DNA from: an uncultured Spirochaetota bacterium
Lineage (GTDB): Bacteria > Spirochaetota > Spirochaetia > SZUA-6 > Fen-1364
Length of the DNA: 64,000 nucleotides
NCBI GenBank assembly: GCA_963820525.1
Contig: CAWGAA010000001.1
Location: 1,600,001-1,664,000, forward strand
Direction of reading: 5' to 3'
The position numbers and the translations under genes were made by a program. The notes beneath the pieces are model-generated. The model did not search any database, was not told the origin of the DNA, and saw only the letters and a list, made by a program, of their open reading frames with translations. Position 1 is the stretch's first letter, and every line of letters starts with the position of its first letter. This document shows positions 54,755-64,000 of the stretch, piece by piece.

Positions 54755-54869
54755 TTTAATATCCAGGCGACGGGCAGAATCGATTGCCTGAGAGGTCCGT
54801 CCTGCACAGTCCGCTACTTCGGGCCGCCCGCTGCTGCCAACCCAAGGCTAAGGACCATTAGTAGATCCA

Positions 54870-55897
54870 CTATGATGATCGTCAAGCCGCCGGTCGATCC
54901 TCCTTCACTCTCTTCAGCACGCGCTCATACTGCCTGAGCTTCTTCTCGTACAACCGCCGGTCCATCCATCGGTACTGCTCGCCACTGAGCAACATCCTCC
55001 TCATCATCCCGCAGAGCTTGCGGATCACGGCGATGCGGGCTCGGCCGGTTCCTCGCTTGTCCCTCAGCTCACTGGTAGTAACGATCCAGGGACACCGAGG
55101 ATGCGGCGACATAGTGCACGCACTGCGTGAGGATCGTCCGAGTCAGCTTCCGGGACTCGCGAGTAATGTGGCCAGGCCGACTCTTGCCTCCACTGTTGCT
55201 CGCCCGCGGCACGAGCCCCAGATACACGCGTTCATCTTCCGGAGGGTCCTGAACCTCCGGATGTCTGCCACATCAGCCAGGAAGGCGAGCGCGATCAAGG
55301 GTGTGACCCCCTTGATGCTGATCAGAAGCTCCACCTGGCTCCGCAGCGGTTCCCCAGCGAGCAGGATCTCCGTGGCCAGCCGCTCCTTCGCTTCCTCCAC
55401 CTTCCATAGTACGTGCAGCGTCAGCTCCAGGCAGACGCGACTGGCCGGGGAGACGTTCATCTCCTTCAGCAGCTCCAGCCCGCTCTCCGGCGCGAACAGC
55501 CGACTCTTGAGCTCCTTCTTCAGCTCGACCCCGTTCTTCACGAGGATCGCCTGGGCGTTGTTCTTGTGCGTCGCGATCTGCCGGTTCAGCAGGCAGTATT
55601 GCGCGAACAACTTCCTCAGCTCTCGCACCACCCCTGTCGGCTTGCACACCGTCGGAATCCCGAACTCCCCCGTCACCACGTGTACCCACAGCGCCTTCGC
55701 CAAGTTGCGCGCATCCTGCTTGTCCGTCTTATTCCACGAGTCCTTGATGATCCGGAACTTGCGCGGATCCACCACGAAGCACCTCGCCCCCTTCGCCTCG
55801 ATCTGATCCGCCCAAAAGAAGGCCCCCGTCGAAGCCTCCAGGACCACTGCGTCCGTTGGTCCCAGACCCTCCACGTACTTCACAAACTCCCGGCAGT
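54870..55897 (-). mobile_element. IS110-family element remnant (5'-truncated, two frameshifts)
   Basis: VVLEASTG and KTDKQDA (DEDD domain, first Asp lost); IKGV; YLGLVP..SNSGG and AVIRKL after frameshifts at ~55225 and ~55075; ends CTTGACGATCATCATAG. Confidence 0.88.
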
Positions 55898-56009
55898 GTA
55901 GTTGCCCGCTTTCTAGTCCGCGGGACTCCCGCGCTCTGGTTTCAGGAATGACCCGCGTAGTTATCTCAAATCCCGCAATGATATCATTTTTCATTTCCGC
56001 CAATAAAAT

Positions 56010-56035
56010 GGAGTGCGAAGCGGTACTCGCACTCC
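56010..56035 (-). terminator. 9-bp perfect hairpin, possible terminator
   Basis: GGAGTGCGA-N8-TCGCACTCC, followed on the minus strand by ATTTTATT. Confidence 0.45.
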
Positions 56036-56110
56036 CGGATTCTGTACATCTGATTTGCTTAGCGCTGAATGACGGCCTGGACATGTTCGGCTTCCACTTG
56101 AGCGCTGTTT

Positions 56111-56305: not shown

Positions 56306-59300
56306 ATGTACAAGGAGGGAGAGACTCTCCGCTTGGCAGCGACCGACATCGGGAATCACTTGGCGTGCCGACACCTGACCCAGCTCGATCGCGCCGTTGC
56401 CGAAGGTCGGCTTTCAGTCCCTATCTGGAGGGACCCGGAGCTCGCCCTCCTTCAGGAGCGGGGCCTGGCCCATGAGAAGGCGTATATCGAGCATCTGCGC
56501 GCCAGCGGTCTCCAGGTCGCCGAGGTGCGGACCGAGAACGGTGGGTCGCCCGTTGAGAGAACCATCTCCGCGATGCGCGCAGGTACCGACGTGATCGTCC
56601 AGGCGGACCTAGGTGAGGGCCGGTGGATCGGTCGCGCCGATGTGCTCCTCAAGGTCCCCGAGCCCAGCGATTTGGGTGACTGGTCTTATGAGGCGGCGGA
56701 TACAAAGCTCTCCCAGGAAACGCGTGCCGGAACGGTGCTACAGCTTTGTCTGTACTCCGATATAGTTTCGCATGTGCAGTGTCGAACGCCAACCCTGATG
56801 CATGTGGTGAAGCCAGGTCCGGAGTTCCCGCGGGAGAGCTTTCGCTTCGATGACTTCAGTGCCTACTTCCGCCTTGTTCGGCGGCGCCTGGAGGAAGCCG
56901 TCGCGACGCCGCCATCCCAATCGACGTACCCCAACCCCGTACCCCACTGCGATATCTGCCACTGGTGGAAGGAATGCGACACTCGCAGACATGACGATGA
57001 TAATCTCTGTCTGGTCGCGGGCATCCGTCCCCTTCATATCGGAGAGCTTGAGCGCCAGGGGATTCACACGCTCCAGCAGTTCGCAGAAGAGCCGAAGCCG
57101 TTCAGGGAGAAACCTGCGCGCGGGAATCCAGAGACATTCGCCAAAGCCCAAAGGCAAGCGCAGATCCAGCTTGCGGGCAGGAAGGCGGGTAGACAACTCC
57201 ACGATATCCTGGATCCAGAGCCGGGGATGGGCTTTGAACGGCTCCCTGAGCCGGACACGGGCGACCTTTTTTTCGATATCGAGGGAGATCCGTTTGCAGG
57301 TGAAGGCGGCCTGGAGTACCTGCTCGGCGTGGCGTTCGCGGGGAAAGACGGTACGCTTGAATACAAGGCCCACTGGGCGCTGAATCGAGCGGAGGAGCGC
57401 AAAGCCCTCGAGGGCTTCATCGATTTCGTCATGGACCGCTGGCAGGCGCACCCCGGGATGCATATTTATCATTTTTCTCCCTATGAGCCCGGCGCAGTGA
57501 AGCGCCTCATCGGTCGGCACGGGACGCGGGAGACGGAGCTGGACCGCCTGCTGCGCGCAGAGCGGTTTGTCGATCTGTACGCAGTGACGCGCCGGGGACT
57601 GCGCGTGAGCGTGGAAAGCTATTCGCTCAAGTCTCTGGAGGAGAGTTACAGCTTCGTTCGGGCCATGGACCTTCGGGCGGCGGGGACCGCGCTTCGCCGC
57701 ATTTCCCGAGTGCTGGAGCTGGCCGTGTTCGATGAAATCTCAGCCGCGGACCGCGCAACAGTAGAGGCGTACAACCGGGACGACTGTCTTTCGACAGCAG
57801 CGCTCCGAGTCTGGTTGGAAGAACGACGAACCGAGCTGGAAACAAATGGACGGCCGATTCCCCGGCCCGAAGCGAAAAGCGGCGATGCCAGCGAGGCTGT
57901 AGAAGAAAAAGCCGCGGACGTGAAGCTCGTCTATGCTCAGCTGACTTTGGGCCTGCCGAGAGATCGGGAAAAATGGGGACCAGCGGAGCGGGCGCGGTGG
58001 CTTCTCGCTCACCTGCTGGAATACTTCAGGCGTGAAGACAAGTGCGCGTGGTGGGAGTTCTTCAGGATCCATGGGCTTGATCACGACGAGCTGTTGGAGG
58101 AGCGAAAGGCGATATCCGGACTCCAATTCGTCGGAGATGAGGGAGGCTCGGCGCGGGCCCCCGTCCATCGCTACAGCTTCCCCGACCAGGAAGCTGCCAT
58201 CGATGACGGGGATGAGCTGTACGAGATCGGTGGAGAGAGAATCGGGAAGGTTGGCGCCGTGGACCTGTACCATCAGATTCTTGAGATCGTGAAGAGCTCC
58301 AAGTCAAAGGATATCCACCCGTCCGCCGTGATGGTCAGCGAACGCGTCCCGCCGAAGCCCGTGGACAGCGCTCTCCTTCAATTCGCAGCCTCCGTGGCGT
58401 TGACGGGTGTTGATGGAAATGGTCCGTATCGCGCTGCGCGCGACCTGCTTATGAGAAGTAATCCTCGACTCCGGATGCCGATGCAGGGTTCGTTGCGCAA
58501 AGCCGGGGAAGAAATTGTCGATACCGCGGTGCGGCTGGTGCGCGCCCTGGACAACAGCATCCTGCCCATCCAGGGACCACCCGGCACTGGCAAAACCTAT
58601 ACGGGGGCTCGGATGATCGTTGCCCTGGCCAGGGAAGGTAAGCGGATCGGCGTGACTGCCGTGAGCCACAAGGTGATCCGAAATCTCCTGCACGAGGTCA
58701 TACACGCTGCTAGCGAGGAGCGCATGGCGCTTCAGGGCATCCACAAGCTCAGCAAGTTGAGCGGAGATGCAGCGCCGGGCATAGAAGAGACGGATGACAA
58801 TGCGGAGGCGCGCGCAGGGCTCGGTGCAGGCAAGGTGGCCGGAGGTACCGCCTGGTTCTGGTCGCGTGAGGACATGATCGGCTCCGTCGACTATCTCTTT
58901 ATAGACGAGGCCGGGCAGATGTCCCTTGCGCACGCGCTGGCCGCGGGTCGGTCCGCGAGAAACCTTGTACTTCTAGGAGACCCGCAGCAGCTGGAACAGC
59001 CCCAGCGCGGCGTGCACCCGGAAGGCGCCGAGGTGGCCGCGCTCGTGCACATCCTGGGAGCCCACAAGACTATTGCGGATGAGGCGGGCCTATTCCTGGA
59101 CGAGACCTGGCGATTGCATCCCAAGATCTGCCGGTTCACCTCCGAGCTTTCCTACGAAGGACGGGTGCACACTCACGCTGGACTCGACAAGCAGGCGCTG
59201 AACGGCGACACGCACTTTGCGGGAAGCGGTCTTTTCTACGTGCCGGTGGATCATGAAGGGAATCAAAACAGCTCATGCGAGGAAGTTGAGGTCGTTGCGC

Positions 59301-59716
59301 GTATCGTCGAAGACCTGCTCAAGGCCGGAGTGACATGGACCGATGCGAGTGGAAAAACACTGAGGCTGGAAAAGTCTAACATCATGGTTGTCGCTCCGTA
59401 CAATGCCCAGGTAGCCGCTATTACAAATCGCCTTCCGCGCGAAGTACGGGTGGGCACTGTTGATAAATTCCAAGGCCAAGAAGCACCGGTGGTTGTCTAC
59501 TCTATGACAAGCTCTTCCGCGGCGGATGCGCCGCGTGGCATGGGGTTCCTCTACAACACCAATCGCCTCAACGTGGCCACAAGTCGCGCGCGGTGCGTCA
59601 GCATCCTCGTGGGCACACGCCGGCTGCTGGAGCCGGAGTGCAACAGCCCAGACCAGATGCGCTGGGCGAACGGCCTGTGCCGCTATCGGGAATTAGCTGC
59701 GGAGATTGTTATATAA
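56306..59716 (+). CDS. TM0106-family RecB-like nuclease / RNase H-like / SF1 (Dna2/Upf1-like) helicase fusion
   Basis: N-terminal C..L, ADVLLK..YEAADTK..Q..LY, HCDICHW..C; FFDIEGDP, YNRDDC; helicase QGPPGTGKT, DEAGQ, GDPQQL, GTVDKFQGQE and RLNVATSRAR. Confidence 0.9.
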   Translation: MYKEGETLRLAATDIGNHLACRHLTQLDRAVAEGRLSVPIWRDPELALLQERGLAHEKAYIEHLRASGLQVAEVRTENGGSPVERTISAMRAGTDVIVQADLGEGRWIGRADVLLKVPEPSDLGDWSYEAADTKLSQETRAGTVLQLCLYSDIVSHVQCRTPTLMHVVKPGPEFPRESFRFDDFSAYFRLVRRRLEEAVATPPSQSTYPNPVPHCDICHWWKECDTRRHDDDNLCLVAGIRPLHIGELERQGIHTLQQFAEEPKPFREKPARGNPETFAKAQRQAQIQLAGRKAGRQLHDILDPEPGMGFERLPEPDTGDLFFDIEGDPFAGEGGLEYLLGVAFAGKDGTLEYKAHWALNRAEERKALEGFIDFVMDRWQAHPGMHIYHFSPYEPGAVKRLIGRHGTRETELDRLLRAERFVDLYAVTRRGLRVSVESYSLKSLEESYSFVRAMDLRAAGTALRRISRVLELAVFDEISAADRATVEAYNRDDCLSTAALRVWLEERRTELETNGRPIPRPEAKSGDASEAVEEKAADVKLVYAQLTLGLPRDREKWGPAERARWLLAHLLEYFRREDKCAWWEFFRIHGLDHDELLEERKAISGLQFVGDEGGSARAPVHRYSFPDQEAAIDDGDELYEIGGERIGKVGAVDLYHQILEIVKSSKSKDIHPSAVMVSERVPPKPVDSALLQFAASVALTGVDGNGPYRAARDLLMRSNPRLRMPMQGSLRKAGEEIVDTAVRLVRALDNSILPIQGPPGTGKTYTGARMIVALAREGKRIGVTAVSHKVIRNLLHEVIHAASEERMALQGIHKLSKLSGDAAPGIEETDDNAEARAGLGAGKVAGGTAWFWSREDMIGSVDYLFIDEAGQMSLAHALAAGRSARNLVLLGDPQQLEQPQRGVHPEGAEVAALVHILGAHKTIADEAGLFLDETWRLHPKICRFTSELSYEGRVHTHAGLDKQALNGDTHFAGSGLFYVPVDHEGNQNSSCEEVEVVARIVEDLLKAGVTWTDASGKTLRLEKSNIMVVAPYNAQVAAITNRLPREVRVGTVDKFQGQEAPVVVYSMTSSSAADAPRGMGFLYNTNRLNVATSRARCVSILVGTRRLLEPECNSPDQMRWANGLCRYRELAAEIVI

Positions 59717-60121: not shown

Positions 60122-60190
60122 TATGGCCCTTCTGTATTACTTGCACCGAGTGCGAGCGGGTGGTGTTCTACTACAACTCCACAACGTAGC
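60092..60190 (+). repeat. Direct repeat copy B
   Basis: Spans the pAgo stop and the AbiEii stop; matches 56111-56208. Confidence 0.9.
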
Positions 60191-61403
60191 GAGGCTGGAA
60201 TGCCCTCTCTGTGATTCGAGCTGCTTGGATCTCGCTTACCTTATATGCTTTCATTGTTCCGCTAGGTATTCCTCCCCGTAGATTTTCATAGACGTAGAGG
60301 AGCAGGTTTCCTGTGCCGCGAATCCGCAATGAATAAGGCTCAGTCAGGCGTGGCACGTCGTGATACATGATTTCCGCGCATAGTCTGTTCCTGGCCGCGT
60401 ATCGGACCCGGTCAAGAGGACCATAGATCTCAAAGGCTCCACGCCCCAATGAAGCTGCCCGTGTGATTCCGATGTGCTGCATCTGTGGGAAGGCAACTCG
60501 CGGTATTGCCGCCTCTCCCATTTCTAATGGAACACGGGGCAGCCTTTCGACGATCGGGCTAGCTTCCATCCATAATAACGCGCTTTCCCGTAGCTCATCG
60601 AAGTAGGACTGCGCGGGAGGCAGGACCGGGAGCTGGTGTTTGAGTTGCTGATCCCAGTTCTCTTCGAGAGTCGAGAAATCTATTGAGCTTATGAACCCTT
60701 CCAAAGAAGGCAGAGTCAGCGCCTTGAATTCGAACTTCCTCTTGAGGACGATGAGAGCGCGCTGGGGATCTATCTCCTCGCGATGGTTGCGGCTGATATT
60801 CACTACGTCATAAACGTCACGGGCTCTGCCTTGTCGTTCATAAAGCGCCCGCGTCTTCTCGGCGAGGATCTCATTCACGGAGTAGCAGAGAATGGAGATA
60901 GGCGGGATCGGAGCATCGCTGAAAAAGTGACGAATATACCGCTTCTCGGGGTTCTCAACGATTATTTCGTGTTGCGTGAGGTCTATAGTTATTCTCGGTA
61001 ATGTTTTCGCCTGTTGCTTGAGAGGCCCGCGATAAGAGATCTTTCCAGAGAAGGTTGTGCGGCCTTGTTTATCGTGACTTTCGATTACTTCAATACCGGG
61101 TTCGGGAAATTCGATACCTGTTTCTTCAGATATCAAGCGCGTGCACTCAAGAAGCGCGTTCCTGTATGCATCGGTTTCGTAGACCATCTCATTGGGCACC
61201 GTGAAGTCAAGATCTTCAGAAAAGCGGTAGGTTTCAAAGAAACATTTTTTCAAGCTCGTCCCGCCTTTGAAAACCCATCTGCTCAACAGCGGGTGTTGGG
61301 CTATTCCCATAAGAACCCACCCCAGTACATAATCCTTCTCGACAACGTTCTGGAGCAGCCCTTCCGAGGTAGCTATTTCTCTTATCTCTTCGCTTGGTAT
61401 CAC
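60171..61403 (-). CDS. AbiEii/AbiGii nucleotidyltransferase toxin with C-terminal WYL-like domain
   Basis: VEKDY, FKGGTSLKK, RFSEDLDF, EK..AL..R and ARDVYD. The last ~85 aa follow a WYL pattern. Confidence 0.88.
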   Translation of the reverse strand: MIPSEEIREIATSEGLLQNVVEKDYVLGWVLMGIAQHPLLSRWVFKGGTSLKKCFFETYRFSEDLDFTVPNEMVYETDAYRNALLECTRLISEETGIEFPEPGIEVIESHDKQGRTTFSGKISYRGPLKQQAKTLPRITIDLTQHEIIVENPEKRYIRHFFSDAPIPPISILCYSVNEILAEKTRALYERQGRARDVYDVVNISRNHREEIDPQRALIVLKRKFEFKALTLPSLEGFISSIDFSTLEENWDQQLKHQLPVLPPAQSYFDELRESALLWMEASPIVERLPRVPLEMGEAAIPRVAFPQMQHIGITRAASLGRGAFEIYGPLDRVRYAARNRLCAEIMYHDVPRLTEPYSLRIRGTGNLLLYVYENLRGGIPSGTMKAYKVSEIQAARITERAFQPRYVVEL

Positions 61404-62227
61404 ACGTATTCCTCCAAGGGCACGTTGATCCGCAATTTCCAGCGTGTAAGTATCTTGCCTTTGTTTGCCCCAGAAGGATCGAGCTTGCTAATTCCGGCGG
61501 ATATATTTTTCCTGCACGCTTCAAGCCATTCTTCATTCACATCACCCCATAATTCACCGCTGAACCCCAAGCGCTTGAAGATGACTCCACGGTTCAGCTT
61601 CTTGGCGTACTGGACAAGTTTTTTCGGTTCCGCTTTTCCGCTTTTCCAATACGCGTGGGCAATGTCCAGAACGTGGCGGCCGCCACCACCCAATTCGGGG
61701 TAATCAAGCACGTCGATTAGGGTTCGATGTCTGTCGGCCACCAGCACGGGGATGTTGTTCCGCCAGACCTTGCTCGTTCCGAATAGACGGCTCTCGGAGA
61801 TCCTATGAGTGCGAAAGGTGATGTTTGCCAGCTTTTGGGTTGCCCTTCGCTGGGCGTGAGTCGTAAAAACGACAATCGCGTTGAATATTTGTTCAGTAAG
61901 CTCCCAGTGTTCTGCGGCCGTGAATCCCGAGATGTAGCATGGCTTGAAGAGCTCCATGGCGAGTGCCCATGGATCGTCAGGCATTGTCTCTGGCGTTGTC
62001 GATGTGAGAGGAACGAATATATAAACGCCTCTCTTGCTTCTTTGCAGCCAGCCTTTTCGTTCCAACCTCAGGAGAATTTTGTTCGCGAGAGGGCGATTAA
62101 GATCGAATTTATTTGCGACATCCCTTCCCTCTATGGTTACTCTCCCTTTCCGTAAGAAATCGCTGAGGATAATGCGTTCCCGGGTGCTCAATCCCTTGTT
62201 TGCTTTGCTTATTTTTGATCTGCCCAT
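61400..62227 (-). CDS. AbiEi family type IV antitoxin / transcriptional regulator
   Basis: wHTH (LLRLERKGWLQR..RGVY), YISGFTAAEHWELTEQ, RTLIDVLD.PELGGG and KRLG. Stop overlaps the toxin GTG. Confidence 0.88.
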   Translation of the reverse strand: MGRSKISKANKGLSTRERIILSDFLRKGRVTIEGRDVANKFDLNRPLANKILLRLERKGWLQRSKRGVYIFVPLTSTTPETMPDDPWALAMELFKPCYISGFTAAEHWELTEQIFNAIVVFTTHAQRRATQKLANITFRTHRISESRLFGTSKVWRNNIPVLVADRHRTLIDVLDYPELGGGGRHVLDIAHAYWKSGKAEPKKLVQYAKKLNRGVIFKRLGFSGELWGDVNEEWLEACRKNISAGISKLDPSGANKGKILTRWKLRINVPLEEYV

Positions 62228-62289
62228 GGCCTGTCTCACGTATGTTATATTCTGATTGCAGATAAGGACACAATATGTCTTTAAATACA

Positions 62290-62318
62290 TTTATAGTATA
62301 ATATATTTGCGCTGTCAA
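62290..62318 (-). promoter_or_regulatory. Sigma-70 promoter of abiEi-abiEii
   Basis: TTGACA-17 bp-TATAAA. The near-palindrome ATGT-C-TTTAAA-T-ACAT just downstream is a candidate operator. Confidence 0.7.
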
Positions 62319-62422
62319 TAACTTTCTTTATTCCTCCTAAACGATAGTGCCTTTCTCAGCGATTGTCTTAGGGGGGGTTTTTAGCTTGGTGCTTGCAATC
62401 CTCTTTGCTCGCTGAGATCAAT

Positions 62423-62515
62423 CCATAACTTCGCCGTAGCCTCTTCATTCAGTCCACGATCCTGCGCAAGATGCTCGACCGTATAGAGCTCTCGAATGAA
62501 CTCTAGAGCCTCGTG
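62423..62515 (-). mobile_element. Possible IS66 transposase (TnpC) scrap
   Basis: HEALEFIRELYTVEHLAQDRGL resembles the IS66 EALxxIxxLYxIE motif. Confidence 0.45.
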
Positions 62516-62534
62516 CGTATGAGAGCTGCTTCCA

Positions 62535-62580
62535 GGCATCCACCTCGTAGACCTTTGCGATCAACCGAGCCCCCATGGGC
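62535..62580 (-). mobile_element. Possible IS91-like transposase C-terminal scrap
   Basis: (W)ARLIAKVYEVD matches the WARLIxKVYEVDPL motif. Confidence 0.55.
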
Positions 62581-62610
62581 GGCAGCCGTTTCTGGTCCCG
62601 GAAGGCGACG

Positions 62611-62694
62611 CTCATCGAGGAACCCTTCCATGTCATCCAGCACGCGCATCGAAATCTCGATTTGCTCAATGACGAGCTGCGGATCCGCGCTCAT
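62611..62694 (-). pseudogene. Truncated 5' end of a probable HEPN (HepT-like) partner gene
   Basis: ATG with GGAGAA upstream overlaps the MNT 3' end. About 28 codons precede the transposase-like sequence; the identity is inferred from context only. Confidence 0.4.
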
Positions 62695-63067
62695 ACACTA
62701 TTCTCCCTCTGCGACGTATTGCCTCCGCATGGGCGGGATGAATGTGTTCAATCTGCACGATATCGAGGGGGAAATGGGTGAGCTTTTCTGCCATCCAAAG
62801 AAGCTCGAAAAATGCGCGCGCCGCCGTTATCCCTTCGACTGTGATATCGATATCCGATATCTCTGAAAACTGCTTTCCATCGATAAGCGATCCCCACTGG
62901 TAGATTCGAGCGGGGTCATATCGTTTTACGATTTGCGCCACGATAGCTTCGAAGTCACTGCGCGCTTCAGCCAAACTAGATGAAAGGGTGCGCGCTCTCT
63001 CATGGCGCTTCCTGGCTAGAAAGGCGTGAGTTGCCTCGACGTCGGCTTTTTAATATCGAACGGCCAT
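62666..63067 (-). pseudogene. Minimal nucleotidyltransferase (MNT) antitoxin with a premature stop at codon 6
   Basis: RIYQWGS..SDIDI..EG and PLDIV motifs. In-frame ATG 63067 followed by TAA at 63050-63052; could restart at TTG 62974. Confidence 0.7.
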
Positions 63068-63169: not shown

Positions 63170-63853
63170 ATGGCCAGCGACTCAAACGCTTCGGAGCCCC
63201 TCACTACCCGTTTCCGCTTTCCTCACCCCAACACGGCGGATGAAGAAGGGTTTCTCGCCATTGGCGGCGACCTCAAGCCCGGCACCCTGCTTCTGGCGTA
63301 CAGAAACGGAATCTTCCCCTGGACCACGCACCCCATCACGTGGTGGTCTCCCGACCCCAGAACGATCATCGAGATTGACGGCCTACATGTTTCGAAAAGC
63401 CTCAAACGCTTCATAGCCAGGGACGGGCTTTCCGTAAGCTTCGACCGCGCGTTCCGCCAGGTCATGGAGGGATGCGCTGCATCGCGGCCGGGCAGGGAGG
63501 AGACGTGGATCAGCCCGGCCTTCATCTCGGCATATTCACGGCTTCACTCCCTGGGCTATGCCCACAGCGTGGAGTGCTGGAGGGGAGAGAATCTGGTCGG
63601 AGGGCTCTACGGGGTTTCAATCGGGTGCTTCTTTGCCGGTGAATCGATGTTTTCGGCGGAGCCGAACGCCTCCAAAGTGGCCATGGCTGGCATATTCGAG
63701 AGGCTCCGTGCCCGCGGCTACCTGCTGTTCGACTGCCAGATGATGACGCCCCATCTTTCCTCGATGGGCGCCGTGGAAATCCCGCGCTCCGAGTACCTGA
63801 GGAGGCTGGCGGAAGCGGTCGAGGGCCGGTGCAGCTTCGGGGACGCGGGCTAG
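63170..63853 (+). CDS. aat: Leucyl/phenylalanyl-tRNA--protein transferase
   Basis: GGDL..LL.AY.NGIFPW, WWSPDPR, AHSVE, GGLYGV, FAGESMF and NASK. Confidence 0.95.
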   Translation: MASDSNASEPLTTRFRFPHPNTADEEGFLAIGGDLKPGTLLLAYRNGIFPWTTHPITWWSPDPRTIIEIDGLHVSKSLKRFIARDGLSVSFDRAFRQVMEGCAASRPGREETWISPAFISAYSRLHSLGYAHSVECWRGENLVGGLYGVSIGCFFAGESMFSAEPNASKVAMAGIFERLRARGYLLFDCQMMTPHLSSMGAVEIPRSEYLRRLAEAVEGRCSFGDAG

Positions 63854-63981
63854 GAGCCTGTCGGACTTGCCTGCTTTTGTGTATGTTCATGCACAACAAC
63901 CCGAGGAAACCTGCATAAACATACACCGGCGGCCTGTCTGCTGAATTTTTATGCAGGAAACGGCCAAAGTCCGACAGGCTC
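63854..63981. mobile_element. 128-bp MITE with 15-bp perfect TIRs flanked by CTAG
   Basis: GAGCCTGTCGGACTT (63854-63868) / AAGTCCGACAGGCTC (63967-63981); CTAG at 63850-63853 and 63982-63985. Confidence 0.88.
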
Positions 63982-64000
63982 CTAGATCTTCTGATCCAGC

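Follow-up and report, generated by a model that had tools for sequence, protein, structure and literature searches.

A diverged WYL domain in the C-terminal tail of an AbiEii-type toxin from an uncultured Spirochaetota bacterium

A stretch of 64,000 nucleotides from the genome of an uncultured Spirochaetota bacterium (GenBank assembly GCA_963820525.1, contig CAWGAA010000001.1, positions 1,600,001 to 1,664,000; the whole stretch is called the window here and is numbered from its first letter) carries an abiE operon that encodes an AbiEi antitoxin and a 410-residue AbiEii toxin. The toxin consists of a nucleotidyltransferase core, a variable linker and a C-terminal tail, and residues 327–410 are a genuine but diverged WYL domain, because fold searches, profile–profile homology and recognised relatives, three independent lines of evidence, lead to the same assignment. 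The fusion belongs to a widespread and already catalogued family and is not new in itself; what is new here is an annotation-cryptic member of that architecture that has no zinc ribbon.

The C-terminal tail of the toxin

In the AlphaFold2 (AF2) model of the toxin, a disordered segment at residues 307–326 was followed by a helix (residues 327–338) and five strands. The segment aligned to residues 301–326 varied between 19 and 32 aa among 34 homologues and had no conserved columns, and the tail, whose sequence had been quoted as WYL-like in an earlier note made from the DNA letters alone, was present as quoted; the catalytic core apart, no stretch of the same alignment was more conserved. A model of the tail alone (residues 322–410) reached a predicted local distance difference test (pLDDT) score of 91.

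When the tail model was compared by VIA-align with 48,161 representative chains, ranks 1–9 were all occupied by WYL proteins, with Z-scores of 9.4–10.9 and root-mean-square deviations (rmsd) of 1.9–3.5 Å over 75–81 residues. These were PafBC (6sj9_B, Z 10.9, rmsd 2.8 Å over 77 residues), CapW (9c5g_B, Z 10.9, 1.9 Å over 75 residues), DriD (8tp8_A, Z 10.7), BrxR (7qfz_A, Z 10.6) and five more, the lowest at 9.4; a designed SH3 barrel came next (Z 7.8), with Hfq/Sm proteins behind it at about 7. Foldseek also placed DriD, BrxR, PafBC and CapW first, with template-modelling (TM) scores on the query of 0.61–0.75. A fold search of this kind was the check that the earlier note had itself named for a WYL or Sm-like tail, and its outcome, with which profile–profile comparison agrees, bears the proposal out.

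For profile–profile comparison by hhalign, the reference set consisted of 31 WYL domains that Pfam recognises, taken from the genome to which the window belongs and from others of its order. A tail profile built from 34 sequences matched them with a probability of 96.5 % (E 1e-9) over 74 columns that include the helix and all strands, and a profile of 64 sequences with 97.2 % (E 4e-11). The controls, 30 column shuffles and one reversal, reached at most 1.9 %.

The relatives of the tail pointed the same way. A phmmer search with residues 271–410 against 1.84 billion representatives found 323 proteins at E ≤ 1e-3. Of these, 35 were scanned: PF13280 (E ≤ 0.01) lay in the aligned region in 30, reaching the cut-off of 21.8 bits in 23, and AbiEii was present in 24; among 73 more, PF13280 was found in 26 and AbiEii in 19 (E ≤ 1e-4), and no other family was found. 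The ESM Atlas returned small clusters, one with PF13280 in 11 % of its members, which is taken as a lead only.

Several direct searches weigh against this assignment, and would fit a chance pattern in which the tail is an unrelated, family-specific extension. Pfam returned 0 families at E ≤ 10 on residues 271–410 and 326–410 and none at E ≤ 0.01 on residues 322–410, and NCBIfam returned none on the tail. No sequence of the PDB was matched by the tail at E ≤ 10 with phmmer, and hmmsearch with two tail profiles against the same sequences gave no significant row; lectins headed the list, ahead of PafBC (E 0.7) and DriD (E ~2), and the PafBC and DriD rows served only to check the consistency of the residue mapping. 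The Foldseek E-values for the tail were also weak, the best being 8.8e-3 and none reaching 1e-3 or below. The missing match to PF13280 reflects a detection threshold, not a structural criterion, and a chance resemblance is hard to reconcile with nine WYL proteins at the head of 48,161 chains, with a probability of 96.5 % for the tail profile when none of the 31 scrambled controls exceeded 1.9 %, and with the PF13280 matches of the tail relatives; we regard it as highly improbable.

The divergence of the domain was located by the hhalign mapping, in which the canonical WYL motif corresponds to L367-L368-L369 and RxFRxxRI to K385-A-Y-K-V-S-E-I392, with a five-residue insertion relative to canonical WYL domains at 379–383. 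In the alignment of short tails, canonical R-x-Y-R-x-D-R-I forms grade into the K-A-Y-K-V-x-E-I of the window protein. As the WYL motif is degenerate in accepted members, reading WHV in CapW/BrxR and NYL in DriD (PMC9186387), it was treated as variable, and its replacement was not taken to exclude membership.

The operon, the toxin core and related loci

The abiEi and abiEii genes overlap as a bicistron and are preceded by a consensus-like promoter (Table 1). The GTG start of abiEii shares 4 nt with the TGA of abiEi (GTGA) and is preceded by GGAGG, 5 nt upstream. The promoter-like site, proposed in the earlier note as the operon's own, was indeed found, as a consensus match only; it is the sole site of this form in the window, and no match was obtained in 100 dinucleotide shuffles. 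A stricter sigma-70 scan did not list it, because that scan demands a T at the last −10 position.

The open frame of abiEi extends to 62290, giving a 296-aa open reading frame (ORF) at 61400–62290(−). Because the first ATG of this frame (62290) overlaps the −10 box and the alignments of AbiEi homologues begin at M22 (ATG 62227), AbiEi most likely starts at M22. A start at this codon leaves a leader of ~55 nt, which contains the 11-nt palindrome. This palindrome is a candidate AbiEi operator, by analogy with the AbiEi of Streptococcus agalactiae, which autorepresses through inverted repeats in its promoter (PMC3985639). The predicted antitoxin matched the PADLOC model PDLC02271 with an E-value of 2.6e-78 and Pfam AbiEi_4 with 22.8 bits, under the cut-off of 25.

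Table 1. Positions in the window of the abiE operon and of the elements that it contains
Feature	Position	Strand	Remarks
abiE operon	60171-62318	-	promoter, abiEi and 410-aa abiEii
Promoter-like site TTGACA-17 nt-TATAAA	62290..62318	-	consensus match only
Palindrome ATGTCTTTAAA/TTTAAATACAT	62275..62290		11 nt, 91 % complementary, directly 3' of the −10 box
abiEi, antitoxin / winged helix-turn-helix (wHTH) autorepressor	61400..62227	-	275 aa from M22
abiEii toxin gene	60171..61403	-	410 aa plus stop; GTG start overlaps abiEi stop
MenT/AbiEii-type pol-beta nucleotidyltransferase core and helical subdomain, residues 1-300	60504..61403	-	PF08843, Foldseek
Motifs I/II: G47-G48 ... R60-F-S62-E-D64-L-D66	61206..61265	-	34-sequence alignment
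Variable disordered linker, residues 307-326	60426..60485	-	pLDDT < 50
Diverged WYL domain, residues 327-410 (helix and five-stranded Sm-like barrel)	60174..60425	-	fold and profile evidence

Residues 30–270 of the toxin matched Pfam PF08843 with 125.8 bits (cut-off 22.5), and residues 1–410 were aligned to positions 1–387 of 396 of the PADLOC AbiEii model PDLC02317 (E 1.5e-107). With the antitoxin match given above and both ORFs in place, the operon is intact, as had been proposed. The homologues in the 34-sequence alignment were 47–74 % identical to the window protein and aligned to it over their full length, from residue 1. The four motifs of AbiEii were defined by Dy et al. (2014) as hG[G/S]-x15-DhD (motifs I/II, with an Arg), a Lys/Arg motif III and +DxxD as motif IV, and mutating this set abolishes toxicity (PMC3985639). 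All four are intact in the window toxin, and the earlier reading of full nucleotidyltransferase motifs in a 410-aa AbiEii holds: motifs I/II are F45-K-G47-G48, 15 residues and D64-L-D66, with R60, motif III is K183 with R190, and motif IV is R195-D196-V-Y-D199. The motif positions were invariant or at least 90 % conserved among the 34 sequences, G47, G48, S62 and D66 being invariant and R60 and D64 conserved in at least 90 %. The full-length AF2 model had a pLDDT of 87.3 and a predicted TM (pTM) score of 0.84, and Foldseek placed TglT/MenT3 (6j7o) first, at E 1.9e-7 with a TM score on the target of 0.60, followed by JHP933, MenT4 and MenT1.

According to a recent preprint, the AbiEii of S. agalactiae is a pyrimidine-specific tRNA nucleotidyltransferase to which AbiEi binds, inducing its auto-phosphorylation on T65, a mode of control that would make AbiE a type VII system (bioRxiv 10.64898/2026.01.19.700257). 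The 'type IV' label of the earlier note is affected by this: the toxin–antitoxin module stands, and its class is under revision to type VII in the same preprint. T65 lies two residues ahead of the first DhD aspartate, and the same offset in the window toxin falls on S62, which was invariant in 34/34 sequences. S62 is the putative equivalent of the phospho-acceptor T65, an equivalence based on offsets to the DhD aspartates and not on alignment to the S. agalactiae toxin. As phospho-acceptor, T49 of the motif I G-G-T was also considered but rejected, since the offsets to the DhD aspartates indicate S62.

The relatives of the toxin were surveyed at two levels. The best 120 of 5,814 homologues were examined, and 114 of them were 395–427 aa long; all 120 had only PF08843 in precomputed Pfam annotation. 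Eighty related loci from many phyla, with one genome per species, were then compared, and an AbiEi homologue was found directly upstream of the toxin gene on the same strand in 80/80. The 74 intact toxin ORFs of these loci were divided into architecture classes by a Pfam scan and a loose zinc-ribbon pattern. A WYL domain followed by a C-terminal CxxC...H...C zinc ribbon was present in 49/74 (463–495 aa) and a WYL domain without the ribbon in 15/74; the window type, 396–414 aa long and ending in ...VEL, accounted for 8/74, and short, tail-less forms for 2/74 (L046, 275 aa, and L076, 282 aa). Pfam WYL was found at E ≤ 1e-3 in 55 of the 76 toxin ORFs that were scanned, with 50 reaching the cut-off, and in 0/8 of the window type.

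A quick IQ-TREE phylogeny of the nucleotidyltransferase part, midpoint-rooted and with the Shimodaira–Hasegawa-like approximate likelihood ratio test (SH-aLRT) as its only support measure, was calculated after dropping three broken sequences (L008, L010 and L014) and three cut by contig ends (L022, L034 and L067). The window-type proteins formed one group (SH-aLRT 98), and its sister was a set of three zinc-ribbon proteins that are likewise missed by Pfam WYL. The tail-less L046 and L076 were nested inside WYL-bearing groups and have the same type of AbiEi. By the same tree the zinc ribbon was lost several times, the ribbon-less class forcing at least 10 changes. Compared in sequence with these relatives, the clade of the window toxin has lost the zinc ribbon as well as the W/R residues of the motif, which is why annotation misses its WYL domain. 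Since Pfam detects the domain in none of the eight window-type loci, surveys of WYL–effector fusions under-count this form.

Two further observations concern the partners of the tail. The conserved C-terminal zinc ribbon (loci L011–L080, e.g. L075:4001–5470) gave sub-threshold Zn_ribbon_8 matches in metagenomic relatives, a sub-threshold zf-C2H2_6 match in L029 and a zf-BED match of 22.2 bits in L055 (cut-off 20.6). A metagenomic protein of 285 aa, P0164, joins a DarT-like N-terminus (PF14487, E 1.2e-25) to a tail 51 % identical to that of the window toxin; apart from AbiEii, no other partner of this tail subtype was seen, and, as a single protein, P0164 may be a chimera.

Possible roles of the tail

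By analogy with the AbiE of S. agalactiae and with MenAT, AbiEi would repress the abiE promoter and would hold the toxin off by inducing its auto-phosphorylation, probably on S62, and the active toxin would add pyrimidine nucleotides to tRNA 3' ends, so that translation would stop. Within this scheme the most likely role of the WYL tail would be that of a built-in regulatory sensor of a nucleic-acid cue from phage replication or DNA damage, which would couple the cue to toxin activity or to escape from AbiEi-induced phosphorylation. Gating of the toxin by phage- or damage-derived ssDNA or ssRNA had been put forward as a possibility in the earlier note.

The tail has a charge of +5 and an isoelectric point (pI) of 9.7 (mean charge +4.9 over the 34 sequences), as against −12 and 5.1 for the core. 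Of its surface-type residues, R334, R338, N339, Y347, R352, Y357, S358, R360, N366, Y370 and K385 are invariant or almost so. Strand 2 carries Y357, S358 and R360, which vary little or not at all, and on strand 4 K385 and an aromatic residue at 387 are conserved; DriD contacts the phosphates and bases of single-stranded DNA (ssDNA) through the same kinds of residue on the same strands (PMC9186387), as judged from a residue mapping that is an hhalign alignment, not a superposition. Because of the basic charge, the conserved surface-type residues and these DriD-like Tyr/Ser/Arg and Lys/aromatic sets, the tail is predicted to bind single-stranded nucleic acid or a nucleotide-like ligand. The zinc ribbon that follows the WYL domain in most relatives (49/74) adds to the plausibility of such binding.

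Other features of the tail weigh against a sensor of the known kind. The WCX domain and a linker take part in forming the ssDNA pocket of DriD and CapW (for DriD, PMC9186387), and both of these are absent from the window toxin. In the hhalign mapping, N366, L368, Y370 and E391 replace the tyrosine of the WYL motif and a set of arginines, which either touch ssDNA in CapW or lie beside the motif, and canonical ssDNA binding may therefore be lost or changed in the window tail. The ligand of the window clade may likewise differ from that of canonical WYL regulators, since the W and Arg residues of the canonical motif are replaced in this clade. In the full-text literature, with subscription-only papers outside its scope, neither a functional study nor ligand data on any AbiEii-WYL protein was found, in line with the earlier note, which had known of no functional characterisation. 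To these is added the WYL domain of the PIF1 helicase, by its title an accessory ssDNA-binding module (bioRxiv 10.1101/163188), which favours a part in substrate binding.

In that alternative the tail, together with the zinc ribbon in relatives, would bind the RNA substrate, at its single-stranded 3' end or in some other single-stranded region, and raise affinity or set the target, with no sensing involved. The site of action fits, as the 3' ends of tRNA are the targets of MenT and AbiEii toxins (bioRxiv 10.64898/2026.01.19.700257), and so do the binding of short ssDNA by WYL domains without base specificity (PMC9186387), the description of WYL1 as boosting Cas13d on RNA, the pairing of a basic tail with an acidic catalytic core, and the one relative of the same tail subtype that has DarT, an enzyme acting on ssDNA, as its fusion partner. 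Those AbiEii and MenT toxins that have been characterised, however, modify tRNA without any such tail (bioRxiv 10.64898/2026.01.19.700257), and the tail-less L046 and L076 lie within WYL-bearing clades, which suggests that the tail is a regulatory addition and is not needed for catalysis; the disordered linker of 19–32 aa suits a tethered regulator equally well. The known tail-less enzymes, the nested tail-less forms and the fact that all solved WYL regulators are allosteric ligand sensors (for DriD, PMC9186387) are the reasons why we favour a regulatory sensor, to which we would give an even chance, over recruitment of substrate, a serious rival, though a more doubtful one.

Sm-like barrels often oligomerise, and the tail could instead be a protein–protein scaffold through which the toxin oligomerises or to which AbiEi or a host factor docks, the tail's ligand binding having been lost; the replacement of the canonical W, Y and Arg motif positions and the absence of the WCX partner domain would agree with this. 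Yet the conserved surface residues (R334, R338, N339, Y357, S358, R360, N366, Y370 and K385) are basic, polar and aromatic, as is typical of nucleic-acid-binding faces, and the same type of AbiEi partners tail-less toxins, so that a scaffold appears unlikely. A complex prediction for AbiEi (28-row alignment) and the 89-aa tail (34 rows) gave scores of 0.27 and 0.02, with a mark of 0.32, and speaks neither for nor against a contact.

The sensor reading can be put in a fuller form, which we offer only tentatively: the tail would be the trigger sensor of this AbiE, binding of phage- or damage-derived single-stranded nucleic acid would activate the nucleotidyltransferase or block the AbiEi-induced phosphorylation of S62, and in the window clade the ligand would have shifted, for example to RNA or a nucleotide. 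The trigger of AbiE in infection is stated to be unresolved in the S. agalactiae work (bioRxiv 10.64898/2026.01.19.700257), and a toxin with a predicted ligand-binding WYL domain of its own is a natural experiment on how AbiE/MenT-type toxins switch on in infection. If the tail is the trigger sensor, the toxin would read the infection signal itself and would not rely on decay of the antitoxin. Apart from this question and from the annotation point made above, the locus is an ordinary accessory defence module.

Genomic setting and comparison with known systems

The operon has a G+C content of 0.44–0.54, compared with 0.59–0.64 in its flanks, and lies in a short variable region with the gene order ATP-binding cassette (ABC) transporter, IS110-like transposase, RecB-like nuclease/superfamily 1 (SF1) helicase, abiE, MntA-like minimal nucleotidyltransferase and aat. 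A full-length copy of the toxin was found in one of 25 genomes of the same family, the window's own, and two others gave partial matches, one to residues 1–263 with an internal TGA and one to residues 1–70. The operon DNA was matched in 0/12 same-family genomes and in 1/8 same-order genomes, at 66 % identity. Because many of the compared genomes are incomplete, missing matches are read as 'not found' and not as 'absent'. As judged from these comparisons, the abiE module is accessory in the window's lineage. Our best explanation of the locus is a horizontally acquired toxin–antitoxin and abortive-infection module of the AbiE family (COG5340/DUF1814), and this explanation, taken as a whole with the sensor tail included, stands midway between doubt and confidence.

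The neighbouring genes gave observations of their own. The MntA-like gene at 62666–62974(−), near the abiE promoter, matched Pfam Polbeta with 28.3 bits and NCBIfam MntA with 29.7 bits (cut-off 60); where a HepT partner was looked for downstream, the small ORFs at 62381–62694(−) had no Pfam match at E ≤ 0.1, and the gene may be what is left of a decayed HepT/MntA pair. The gene at 56306–59716(+) encodes 1136 aa with a TM0106-family RecB-like nuclease (TIGR03491, 238 bits), RNase_H_2 and an SF1 helicase (AAA_11/AAA_12); its protein gave weak PADLOC matches to MkoA/MkoC, and its DNA is ~70 % identical in 6 same-family genomes. The IS110-like transposase ORF at 55143–56084(−), within 54867–56084, had two Pfam matches, both under the curated cut-offs, and the DNA at 54867–55897 is 87–92 % identical to contigs of three related genomes, which indicates a mobile element common to the family. 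A stretch of ~140 bp at 63847–63992 has three further copies in the same genome at 99–100 % identity (contigs C4 and C3, and C1 near 1,680,970).

The combination of an AbiEii core with a WYL domain has a precedent. Makarova et al. (2014) name an 'AbiGII-like nucleotidyltransferase (DUF1814)' among the fusion partners of WYL and already propose a ligand-sensing WYL domain that regulates abortive infection, the hypothesis to which the earlier note also came, and their supplementary file 7 lists a five-member group, 'AbiGII-like-nucleotidyltransferase+WYL+C2H2', with entries that include proteins of 486, 476 and 407 aa (PMC4012209). In the full-text literature found, this was the only paper to treat the AbiEii-WYL fusion, the other matches having mostly been judged by title or the start of the abstract. 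The fusion is catalogued there, and it predominates in this AbiEii clade, where 55/76 ORFs carry a WYL domain that Pfam detects. The window toxin shares the domain order of that DUF1814+WYL(+zf-C2H2) architecture (PMC4012209), whereas its clade has no zinc ribbon and a WYL domain that Pfam does not detect.

With AbiE of S. agalactiae and Lactococcus lactis and with the mycobacterial MenAT3 (TglT/TakA), the window locus has in common a COG5340 antitoxin and a DUF1814/COG2253 toxin, an overlapping bicistronic abiEi-abiEii arrangement, a wHTH antitoxin, motifs I–IV, a MenT3-like fold and the R-x-[S/T]-x-D-h-D segment, in which the phospho-acceptor position lies. Those toxins, which are chains of ~290 aa in the MenT3/TglT structures, end after the helical subdomain, whereas the window toxin adds the linker and the WYL domain; its identity to solved MenT-type toxins in the fold matches is 12–20 %. 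WYL domains that accompany a nucleic-acid enzyme instead of a transcription factor, by fusion or as a partner, are also described: the C-terminal one of the Thermotoga elfii PIF1 helicase and the accessory protein WYL1 of Cas13d, known here by titles and the starts of abstracts; the enzymes differ from the window toxin, and the likeness is one of description only. Like the WYL domains of PafBC, DriD, CapW and BrxR, that of the window toxin has an N-terminal helix and a five-stranded Sm-like barrel and occurs in the context of a defence system. In contrast to these four proteins, the window toxin has neither a wHTH nor the WCX dimerisation domain, which supplies half of the pocket for ssDNA in DriD and CapW, and its WYL domain is joined to an enzyme rather than to a DNA-binding domain.

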